64,000 bases of DNA from Sphingobacterium sp. (GTDB lineage: Bacteria; Bacteroidota; Bacteroidia; Sphingobacteriales; Sphingobacteriaceae): the NCBI GenBank assembly GCA_022712315.1, contig JALAGS010000080.1, forward strand, positions 21,209-85,208, read 5' to 3'. Each line of letters starts with the position of its first letter. The first letter of the stretch is position 1. The position numbers were made by a program, and so were the translations under genes. Below are positions 26,002 through 27,400 of the stretch, piece by piece. A model generated the notes under the pieces. It was not told the origin of the DNA. It worked only from the letters and a program-made list of their open reading frames with translations, and ran no database searches.

Positions 26002-26427
26002 TTAATTAATTCTTTTCCATGTCTCTGTACGTCCAAGCAAGCTTACACCGACATATCCCCTGATATCAAGTTTATCCCCTTTTAAAGTCATCTTGCAGCT
26101 ATACGTTTTGCCCGACTTTGGATCATAAATCTTTCCATCCGCATAAGTATTGCCATCTTTTTCAAAATTGGTCAAGATTTCGAGCCCCTGTACATTTCTG
26201 CTCTGCAACGCTTTATCTGGGTTTTTTATATCTTTCTTTGGCTGACCTGCTTCGTTATTTGGAAATTTCAGCCAAAAGAGCTTACCAAAAAACTTATCGC
26301 CTTTCTTGTAAATTTCAACACGGCCCTCACCGCTTGGATTTTCCCACTTTCCGATAATGGGATCTGTTTGCGCAAATAATGCTACTGTTGTAAGCAACAT
26401 TATGAATGATAACATAACTTTCTTCAT
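26002..26427 (-). CDS. DUF2147 domain exported protein
   Basis: Signal peptide; IIGKW, GKIYDPKSGKTYSC, RGYVGVSLLGRTETWKR. Confidence 0.88.
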   Translation of the reverse strand: MKKVMLSFIMLLTTVALFAQTDPIIGKWENPSGEGRVEIYKKGDKFFGKLFWLKFPNNEAGQPKKDIKNPDKALQSRNVQGLEILTNFEKDGNTYADGKIYDPKSGKTYSCKMTLKGDKLDIRGYVGVSLLGRTETWKRIN

Positions 26428-26785
26428 GAGTCTATTTTTTATGAACTTAAATTCTTCAATCTATGACCTGAACTCTTTCCCATTTTTTCGCACCACCCCC
26501 ATCTAAATTCCTTGTTTAGTGTTCAGGTATCTCCCCTTATCCTTATCCAGCGCCGACCGCAACACTCCTGCTGGACAAACCGCCTAGCAGCTGATGATCA
26601 AAAGCTTGCACCATAGCGCTGAAATAAATATACAAAATATTTACTATGCTTGCATACATTTATTTTCTGTACACTTAATTTTCAAATAAACATAGCATCC
26701 ATTGCGGAACAATAGTTCACACAGACATGAAAAATGTAATGGCGCTTTTTTCGTTTACAAGTTAGCTCGCCACATGTGCGAACTG

Positions 26786-26977
26786 TTCGGGACAGCTTCG
26801 TCCTTTGCTCGCCTTTTGTTCGCCCCTGCTTCGGAAATTCTCTTATGTTTCTCTACAGATTCCCTACTGATGGCCTAACTGCCGGTAGAGAATCTGTAGA
26901 GAAAAGGTAGAAAATGGGTAGAGAATTTCCGAACAAGCTCCGAAGAAGGTCCGAACGGGTTACGAAGAACATACGAA
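26786..26977. repeat. Large imperfect inverted repeat with 11-bp periodic TTCG/CGAA and CTAC/GTAG cores
   Basis: TTCG-like at 26786, 26797, 26808 (CTCG), 26819, 26830; CGAA at 26930, 26941, 26952, 26963, 26974; GTAG at 26885, 26896, 26907, 26918; perfect 13-bp IR 26830-26842/26921-26933; inner 19-bp IR 26849-26867/26885-26903 with 1 mismatch. Confidence 0.9.
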
Positions 26978-26989
26978 GAGGCGTAAAGT

Positions 26990-27006
26990 TTGGCATCGGG
27001 TTTGCA
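26990..27006 (+). promoter_or_regulatory. Sigma54 (RpoN)-type -24/-12 promoter
   Basis: TTGGCATCGGGTTTGCA: GG (26992-93) and GC (27004-05) separated by exactly 10 nt. Confidence 0.65.
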
Positions 27007-27058: not shown

Positions 27059-27400
27059 ATGAAATTTATTATTAGTCTTTTACTTACTGGAGTTGTCGTC
27101 GCGGTTGCGTGCTGGGTCGTACCCGGAGCTCATGTTGCTGGATTCGGCTGGGCTATCGTTACCGGACTTGTCATTGGATTTGTCAATGCGACTGTGGGAT
27201 CGATTTTAAGGTTATTTACTTTCCCATTGAATTGGCTTACACTCGGCCTGGTTTCGTTTATTATTACGGTATTAATGGTCTTGTTGACAGATTCGCTGCT
27301 CGGTTCCAAATTTGATGTAAATGGCTTTTGGACCGCTGCGCTATTTGCCATTGTCGTTGCCATATTGGAAATGATTATTGGCAGCACTTCAAAAGATTAA
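27059..27400 (+). CDS. YvlD/phage-holin-superfamily-IV membrane protein (no phage context)
   Basis: Start at ATG 27059; four TM segments; VPGAHVAGFGWA, VIGFVNATVGSILRLFTFPLNWLTLGL, FWTAALFAIV. Confidence 0.85.
   Translation: MKFIISLLLTGVVVAVACWVVPGAHVAGFGWAIVTGLVIGFVNATVGSILRLFTFPLNWLTLGLVSFIITVLMVLLTDSLLGSKFDVNGFWTAALFAIVVAILEMIIGSTSKD

Follow-up and report, generated by a model that had tools for sequence, protein, structure and literature searches.

Strictly 11-bp modular palindromic repeats dispersed in the genomes of Sphingobacterium and its relatives

A segment of 192 bp lying just upstream of a sigma-54-type promoter in Sphingobacterium sp. raises the question of whether it is a control site dedicated to that promoter or one copy of something more widespread. 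The segment, hereafter the focal element, occupies positions 26786-26977 of the window, which is the whole 64,000-nucleotide stretch analysed here (assembly GCA_022712315.1, contig JALAGS010000080.1, positions 21,209 to 85,208 of the forward strand). Coordinates are window positions unless a contig is named; G000 denotes the source genome, other G numbers denote further genomes, which are samples of their groups, and L and C numbers denote loci and contigs, respectively. An initial annotation had described the element as a symmetric array with an exact 11-bp period and had offered two explanations, a phased protein-binding array such as an enhancer or a new dispersed palindromic element. The second of these stood, with at least 13 copies in G000, about 37 in another Sphingobacterium and arrays in 12 of 37 genera of the family, while a dedicated sigma-54 enhancer did not.

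The periodicity proved to be real. TTCG cores start at 26786, 26797, 26819 and 26830, with CTCG at 26808 keeping their register, followed by CTAC cores at 26853 and 26864, GTAG cores at 26885, 26896, 26907 and 26918, and CGAA cores at 26930, 26941, 26952, 26963 and 26974. Within every array the distance from core to core is exactly 11 and the cores recur in mirror order, the register shifting by +1 between arrays (23 nt from 26830 to 26853 and 12 nt from 26918 to 26930). This pattern is far beyond chance: CGAA-N7 repeated four times was matched twice in the window against 0.00 expected in 100 shuffles. The two halves are joined by a perfect 14-bp inverted repeat, TTCTCTACAGATTC (26849-62) with GAATCTGTAGAGAA (26890-903), and by a perfect 11-bp inverted repeat, TTCGGAAATTC (26830-40) with GAATTTCCGAA (26923-33). 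The inner arms are 81% complementary over 31 nt, and the spacers, which had been described as mostly non-complementary, are so in the outer arms. For either strand, the whole stretch is predicted to form a single long hairpin (-77 kcal/mol; z -4.9 and -5.6). Predicted curvature was not used, since any 11-bp-periodic sequence scores as curved by construction. Only open reading frames (ORFs) of 44-58 aa overlap the element, and the two longest (58 and 47 aa) gave no Pfam match; the element is non-coding and, as originally stated, not a simple tandem repeat.

Searches by period and by gapped pattern, of the kind proposed in the initial annotation, disclosed a dispersed family. When G000 was scanned for four occurrences of one and the same 4-mer at constant spacing, 58 loci were returned at period 11 and 0-15 at each other period from 5 to 20. 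Among 57 period-11 loci, 47 are intergenic by crude gene calls (ORFs of at least 90 aa with an ATG start) and 34 form a single coaxial hairpin with 30 or more pairs. They represent several sequence families, with cores including TTCG/CGAA, TTCGGTGCTT, CACTGA and CCTAAAC. Plain BLAST of the focal element against G000 gave one paralog only, at C221:14379-14530 with ~72% identity, and the family copies were instead detected by their end motifs, TTCGTA-N5-TTCG and CGAA-N5-TACGAA; such scans demand exact cores, so that degenerate copies are under-counted. In this way at least 13 copies with unrelated flanks were found, sharing the ends TTCGTAy-N4-TTCGkA and CGAA-N5-rTACGAA. The focal element is neither single-copy nor a purely local feature. 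The end motifs are 132-133 nt apart, start to start, in 9 of the copies and differ by multiples of 11 in the remainder.

Alignment of the G000 copies defined a canonical form of ~165 bp, consisting of three TTCG modules, four or five (A/C)CAGA modules, a loop, four TCTG(G/T) modules and three CGAA modules. The outer modules have the core [GT][CG]TTCG[GA], the inner ones read CAGA in one arm and TCTG in the other, and the arms mirror each other around the short loop. Terminal inverted repeats are present and the whole copy is an imperfect palindrome with a fuzzy outermost boundary. The focal and C221 copies are a variant whose inner modules read TCTGTAGAGAA. The aligned copies show that the inner modules of the focal element have drifted to CTAC/GTAG, its GTAG being a mutated family module (TCTGTAc to TCTGTAg), and that the focal copy itself is a diverged variant in which both layers have gained modules in 11-bp steps, up to 192 bp. 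Arrays of three GTAGA occur in G000 at these two loci only and are essentially absent from 150 genomes of the family.

The same architecture was found in relatives. G068, another Sphingobacterium (4.1 Mb), contains about 37 copies with the same TTCGGAC/TTCGGAG arms and unrelated flanks, to which the focal arms align. These form a subfamily with a short loop and an additional outer layer of CCACTCT/AGAGTGG 11-mers, and several G068 contigs end at copies. Their context is tandem in 13 cases, divergent in 6 and convergent in 4, roughly random proportions, and the adjoining genes are unrelated. Many of these TTCGGA copies (L148-L176) have heptamer arrays, (CATCTCA)n and (ATGTCTT)n, on one flank and are also bordered by short palindromes resembling repetitive extragenic palindromic (REP) sequences, of the type GGTTGGTGnnnCCACCAACC, making the intergenic regions mosaics of repeat classes.

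Beyond these two genomes, TTCG-N7 repeated four times was matched in 33 of 151 Sphingobacteriaceae genomes, belonging to 12 of 37 genera, with up to 46 matches per genome and about none for a reversed-pattern control; in a phylum-wide sample, 15 of 301 genomes had matches. In five array-rich genomes from four genera, 36-46 matches were obtained at period 11, 0 at period 10 and 0 at period 12. Arrays of other genera have the same mirrored layout with unrelated spacers, and the module logo, [GT][CG]TTCG[GA]N4 with uninformative last four positions, is identical in G000 and in other genera. As logo and period are the same across genera and spacers are unrelated, the features conserved at this level are the core and its phasing, which is what the initial annotation had singled out. 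In the complete genome G169 (C1), the TTCG strand of one-armed arrays lies on the leading strand at 12 of 13 loci, as judged from a GC skew sampled every 240 kb with sign changes near 1.2 and 3.9 Mb; this bias may reflect the orientation of genes or a link to replication.

Comparison with orthologous sites gave access to the history of the focal copy. The intergenic region conserves, across the genus, a box at 26622-26656 and the sigma-54-type promoter, and the stretch between them is hypervariable. In the closest relative (L041), whose flanks are ~95% identical, window positions 26716-26981 are cleanly absent and the promoter is kept; the 70 nt preceding the element are either part of the variable segment or else were co-deleted, as far as the pairwise alignment suggests. 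The orthologous element is present at L042 and L046, differing by whole modules, and the number of modules in the right inner arm differs between orthologs. At L043/L045 and L055/L056 the TTCG and CGAA arms are kept around different centres, and in other relatives nothing recognisable lies between box and promoter. The promoter occurs without the element at L041, L044, L047, L049, L050, L052-54, L059, L063 and other loci and therefore does not need it. At the ortholog of ~26700-26980, a (CCAT)n microsatellite of 8 to ~25 units was seen at L049, L063, L003 (G005) and L002 (G019), in S. siyangense and S. multivorum-type genomes, and could act as a phase-variable spacer between box and promoter; G019 also has an IS1595-like insertion at that site.

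A second history was read at C221:14300-14600, which lies between convergent genes, by comparing the orthologous sites of G005, G019, G018, G020 and G008. In four relatives the site is occupied by an ordinary terminator hairpin (A-run, GATCCCAG stem, T-run), and in G000 and G008 this hairpin is replaced by 11-bp-module palindromes with different centres. In G008 the TTCG arms enclose a centre of CCCAC/GTGGG 11-mers that is single-copy in that genome. A second dispersed element nested at the centre of the palindrome was rejected, given this single-copy centre in G008 and a focal centre derived from the family's own inner modules. Both sites thus show presence and absence between relatives, which is compatible with gain and loss alike. 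When two sets of three orthologous copies were pooled, invariant positions amounted to 85/106 in cores and 134/199 in spacers (odds ratio 1.96, p = 0.023), a modest effect, with cores clearly decaying in distal modules.

Taken together, these are the properties of a dispersed, non-coding palindromic family with conserved multi-site ends and a variable centre, a strict 11-bp period, length changes in whole modules and presence or absence at orthologous sites. The published literature on 11-nt or 11-bp repeats, periodicity and Sphingobacteriaceae repeats contained no description of such elements that we could find, and the focal region matched no Rfam family, in keeping with the initial statement that no named feature corresponds to it; the family of 11-bp-module palindromes in Sphingobacterium and its relatives is apparently undescribed. 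We consider it probable, with due reserve, that the focal element represents a diverged and expanded member of a repeat family that is dispersed, non-autonomous and similar to MITEs (miniature inverted-repeat transposable elements). Like MITEs, the copies are small, non-coding, numerous and dispersed, have terminal inverted repeats and are polymorphic between close relatives.

Several observations weigh against this assignment. No transposase was found associated with the family, and the scan of G000 for end pairs disclosed no autonomous relative carrying a transposase between the same ends, every left-right pair within 12 kb being 101-144 nt apart. The insertion polymorphism that had been suggested as a check was found with respect to L041, but the target-site duplication sought along with it was discernible neither at the L041/G000 junction nor in aligned copies, where the ends are frayed and 1-2 bp could hide. 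The relatives searched for the empty site of one G068 copy were only 77-80% identical, too remote for its boundaries to be defined. The focal element is held at the same exact site across several species, it is only ~72% identical to its closest paralog and there is no sign of recent movement in G000. Furthermore, the mildly conserved cores hint at constraint imposed by the host, as opposed to pure selfishness of the element. Finally, the inner layers keep the 11-bp period despite a change of core (GTAG in the focal copy, CCCAC/GTGGG in G008), and for this reason one core-specific protein does not explain the period.

If the MITE-like interpretation is adopted, the phased cores are probably multi-site protein-binding ends, by analogy with known systems. 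Since one module would equal one helical turn, all cores of an arm would be displayed on one face of the duplex, and a candidate cognate protein might coat each arm cooperatively and pair the mirror arms, as occurs at multi-site transposon ends; such coating and pairing would account for ends and phasing being conserved and for a centre free to vary. In this mechanism the cooperative sites would define the ends of the element, and the focal copy would be a passenger between a conserved operator-like box and a sigma-54 promoter, altering their spacing. A broader and much more speculative proposal, to which we attach little probability, is that Sphingobacteriaceae, and sporadically other Bacteroidota, possess 'helical-turn modular' elements that are read once per turn by a lineage-specific protein, are either mobilised by a transposase-independent or novel-recombinase route or used as architectural sites, and generate new 11-bp arrays at their centre. 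Replication-oriented nucleoid organisation would be one such architectural use, hinted at by the leading-strand bias in G169. The parts of the focal element and the features around it are collected in Table 1.

Table 1. Parts of the focal element and adjoining features (window positions).
Feature	Position	Strand	Composition	Remarks
DUF2147 gene, divergent, upstream	26002..26427	-		domain match
Genus-conserved box	26622..26656		AAATAAATATACAAAATATTTACTATGCTTGCATA; contains inverted repeat ATGC-TT-GCAT	adjoins element
Non-periodic 70 nt	26716..26785			absent along with element in closest relative L041 (pairwise alignment)
Left outer arm	26786..26840		five 11-bp modules, TTCG core (CTCG at 26808)	homologous to the family's CGAA end; aligns with consensus of G000 and G068 copies
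Left inner arm	26841..26867		CTAC-core modules (26853, 26864); reads ..TCTACAGATTC..	counterpart of canonical (A/C)CAGA modules
Palindrome centre/loop	26868..26884		TGATGGCCTAACTGCCG	most variable part among orthologous copies
Right inner arm	26885..26929		four 11-bp GTAGAGAAnnn modules (26885, 26896, 26907, 26918)	derived from the family's TCTG(T/G) modules
Right outer arm	26930..26981		five CGAA-core modules (26930-26974); ends ..TTACGAA..ATACGAAGAG	the family's TTCGTAy end on the opposite strand
Sigma-54-type promoter of yvlD-like gene	26991..27006	+	TGGCAT-CGGGT-TTGCA	adjoins element, not part of it
PF04020 (Phage_holin_4_2 / YvlD-like) membrane protein gene, downstream	27059..27400	+		domain match

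The surroundings are those of an ordinary chromosomal region, with genes for UvrA, ecotin, BipA, an aminotransferase, a MacB-like permease, a P-type ATPase, PGI and RF2, and collections of plasmids and phages gave no match to the element. The YvlD-like protein is 100% identical to that of one Sphingobacterium metagenome-assembled genome and shares 96% identity with its counterparts in S. puteale, S. paramultivorum and S. siyangense. The last focal CGAA ends 13 nt before the TGGCAT-N5-TTGCA promoter, confirming the position given by the initial annotation, and the promoter is kept at 23 Sphingobacterium loci, more distant species having a variant of the TGGCAC type. The upstream box is at a constant distance from DUF2147 and is probably an operator; its distance to the promoter ranges among species from 88 to ~365 nt and is set by the intervening sequence.

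The alternative that survives best, although we regard it as unlikely, is that the element is a host architectural or regulatory array. Here the phased [GT][CG]TTCG[GA] cores would bind a host protein polymerising along one face of the DNA, for instance an OmpR/PhoB-type winged-helix regulator, a ParR-like ribbon-helix-helix protein or a nucleoid-associated protein, and the dispersed copies would be functional modules that bend or loop DNA as insulators or enhancers, the focal module being placed just upstream of the sigma-54 promoter. Such a role is consistent with the strict phasing and the core of 7-8 bp conserved across genera with unrelated spacers, with cores being modestly more conserved than spacers in orthologs (p = 0.023), with the leading-strand position of the TTCG strand at 12 of 13 G169 loci, and with the retention of the element in place in several species, where orthologs end 8-13 nt before the -24 box. 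Moreover, 11-bp direct repeats are a known binding mode of PhoP-type regulators (PMC2275107), and the modules follow the spacing of OmpR/PhoB-type operators (a 6-7-bp core at 10-11 bp centre to centre) at period 11 only. The focal element also spans -14 to -205 relative to TGGCAT at 26991, a position that includes that of upstream activating sequences (~80-200 bp upstream of -24/-12), and G000 encodes RpoN and seven full-length PF00158 genes (sigma-54 activators, or bacterial enhancer-binding proteins).

Against a host array, L041, L044, L047, L049, L063 and others keep the promoter and its flanking genes and lack the element, so that element and promoter are not co-conserved among orthologs. 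A sigma-54-like site was found near only 3 of 57 period-11 loci, and two of those three lack the GC of the -12 box. The window contains no PF00158 activator gene, and neither an enhancer-binding protein nor a regulator gene lies nearby. Genes adjoining the copies are functionally unrelated, as are those adjoining another family, and no coherent regulon was recognised beside copies, which occur in convergent, divergent and tandem contexts; nor is a change of core at a constant period in the inner layers expected from such an array. In its strictest version, a dedicated sigma-54 enhancer, this explanation was rejected, the promoter being conserved without the element in many relatives and other copies not standing beside sigma-54 sites.

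A lower probability is assigned to an RNA-level explanation, which we find quite improbable. One turn of an A-form helix comprises 11 nt, and the modules could therefore describe a hairpin of transcribed RNA or of single-stranded DNA, serving as a bidirectional terminator, a stabilising or insulating hairpin or a substrate of RNase III, similar to REP or enterobacterial repetitive intergenic consensus (ERIC) sequences. The focal stretch does form a single coaxial hairpin whichever strand is folded (z about -5), 34 of 57 period-11 loci fold alike, and the C221 copy, flanked by convergent genes, occupies the very place of an A-stem-T terminator in four relatives, with no other terminator-like site there. 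However, none of 28 predicted pairs showed a compensatory double change among 27 paralogous G068 copies, which are too alike for a strong test, and the outer-arm spacers of the focal copy are non-complementary. In addition, the focal copy is flanked by divergent genes and stands upstream of the promoters of both, where the end of a transcript is not expected, it has no U-tract or terminator-like tail, and the G068 copies have no preference of context. The Rfam check advised in the initial annotation, carried out with Rfam 15 at permissive E-values on the focal region and 20 other array loci, returned only sub-threshold noise from miRNA hairpins.

Still less probable is a pure mutational by-product, i.e. 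a palindromic minisatellite that grows in place by 11-nt slippage and intrastrand template switching, with no trans-acting factor and no function. The variable number of modules among orthologs would fit such growth, as would the replacement of the centre by locus-specific 11-mer arrays (the single-copy CCCAC/GTGGG of G008) and the presence, in young copies, of arms that are near-perfect complements of each other while adjacent modules differ. Tandem repeats with units of 5-11 bp are also reported to expand in bacteria with large genomes (Mrazek 2007, cited in PMC4679880). Yet growth in place cannot give 13-37 copies that stand at unrelated loci and have over 130 nt of specific sequence in common, and it leaves unexplained both the constant 133-nt size of most G000 copies and the identity of core logo and period across genera.

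Two further candidates for mobilisation were set aside. An element of the REP or bacterial interspersed mosaic element (BIME) type, mobilised by a REP-associated tyrosine transposase (RAYT, TnpA-REP) that recognises the GTAG tag, a link to which the initial annotation had pointed, shares with our element the GTAG tetranucleotide and a palindromic shape only (PMC3733652) and was rejected as extremely improbable, because PF01797 (Y1 transposase) had 0 matches in the 99.8%-complete G000 and 0 in the five array-rich genomes while control genomes matched, GTAGA arrays are confined to two loci and form no family, GTAG is a mutated module, internal and periodic rather than terminal, and the element measures 165-192 bp and not 20-40 bp. 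An IS607-type serine transposase was likewise rejected, since G000 contains two large serine recombinases only (490 and 531 aa) and no small one.

Returning to the MITE-like family, the nearest described system is BrickBuilt of Porphyromonas gingivalis, a MITE with an internal minisatellite. Both belong to Bacteroidota and consist of small intergenic elements in tens of dispersed copies, built of short bricks that vary in number, with inverted ends and no transposase of their own (PMC4596501). BrickBuilt differs in that its 23-nt bricks are identical, all run in one direction and are accompanied by a leader and a tail, whereas the elements described here have 11-nt modules that share a core of 4-8 nt, two layers with different cores and mirror-image halves. 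REP/BIME sequences with RAYT are likewise dispersed extragenic palindromes containing GTAG, but they measure 20-40 bp, reach hundreds of copies, carry a GTAG or CGTC tag at one of their ends and are accompanied by a Y1 HUH gene in the genome (PMC3733652, PMC2817692). Our family shows none of these four features.

Multi-site transposon ends (En/Spm CACTA and Ac subterminal repeats, Tn7 TnsB sites, Mu) resemble the present elements in having repeated motifs at each end, inverted ends and a variable interior. Such transposon ends border a known transposase gene or are derived from one, produce target-site duplications and are not spaced at a strict 11 bp; in our family neither a transposase gene nor a target-site duplication was found, and the spacing is strictly 11. 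The arrays of OmpR/PhoB-family regulators such as PhoP and ArcA, the latter with multi-repeat binding sites, also combine a core of 6-7 bp and a spacer of 4-5 bp into 11 bp centre to centre. They comprise 2-6 repeats, with cooperative binding along a single helix face, and differ in lying at the promoters of a regulon and in being neither palindromic, nor a dispersed repeat family, nor 165 bp long; in Streptomyces, the units bound by PhoP are 11-nt direct repeats (PMC2275107).

Similarly, parC of plasmid R1 has a central region with a block of five 11-bp repeats on each side. In parC, which is bound by ParR, the blocks are direct repeats flanking the par promoter, beside parMR on a plasmid. 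Our blocks are inverted and stand in a chromosomal housekeeping setting, with no par genes in the window and no plasmid match; 11-bp repeats are also noted in 10.1101/462192. PhoP-type operators, parC and the CACTA, Ac, Tn7 and Mu ends are thus mechanistic analogies and not memberships. Last, long simple-sequence repeats whose units measure 5-11 bp resemble our elements in being restricted to certain lineages, intergenic, of variable copy number and unexplained. So do TAACTGA heptamers and short tandemly repeated repetitive (STRR) sequences (PMC4679880). All these short-unit repeats differ in being one-directional arrays of identical units, neither composed of core-plus-variable-spacer modules nor mirrored.

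Other repeats were observed in G000 alongside this family. A second dispersed family comprises 14 copies of ~220 nt with ~75% identity and 2-6 tandem CACTGAnnnnn 11-mers (C204:42781-43004, C112:14064, C125:24472, C38:15700, C209:27090, C216:26506, C150:4227, C11:12101, C113:35662, C73:182572, C100:47625, C189:5410, C176:73611 and C169:33170). Its copies have conserved 5' and 3' segments, lie beside unrelated genes and have no Rfam match, and could represent a multi-copy small RNA or another repeat element. Arrays of CCTAAACTAAA 11-mers, which have TTAGG mirror arms, stop ~20 nt short of an ATG start codon (C137:12977-13031, C72:13942-13996 and C179:44199-44264; also C14:373, C188:67613 and C93:13623), recalling the heptamer repeats just upstream of start codons in Beggiatoaceae and Flexibacter (PMC4679880). 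A further family of period-11 palindromes, at C100:47860-47990 and C117:41081-41200, is made of the modules TATTTCTTTGC and GCAAnnnnnTA. Four paralogous regions of ~1 kb (C165:38600-39806, C231:925-1900, C85:6300-7278 and C154:16500-17658) have a 124-aa gene of unknown family on one side and TlpA-like/SusC/SusD genes on the other; despite the long CTTCG/CCGAAG 11-mer palindromes within them, one frame is open for ~330 codons, and they are either coding or a large non-coding leader.

The dispersed intergenic repeats of Bacteroidota are almost unstudied, and the family described here adds an architecture to them, with a strict module of one helical turn, two layers with different cores, mirror symmetry and no associated transposase found. 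The family is abundant enough to break assemblies, and its copies can replace terminators and shift conserved operator boxes hundreds of bp from promoters. In annotation, such elements should not be taken as locus-specific enhancers. The strict 11-bp rule, kept across genera with unrelated spacers, points to a cooperative DNA-binding protein or an unusual repeat-generating mechanism, and identifying the factor could reveal a new mobilisation or nucleoid-organising system.

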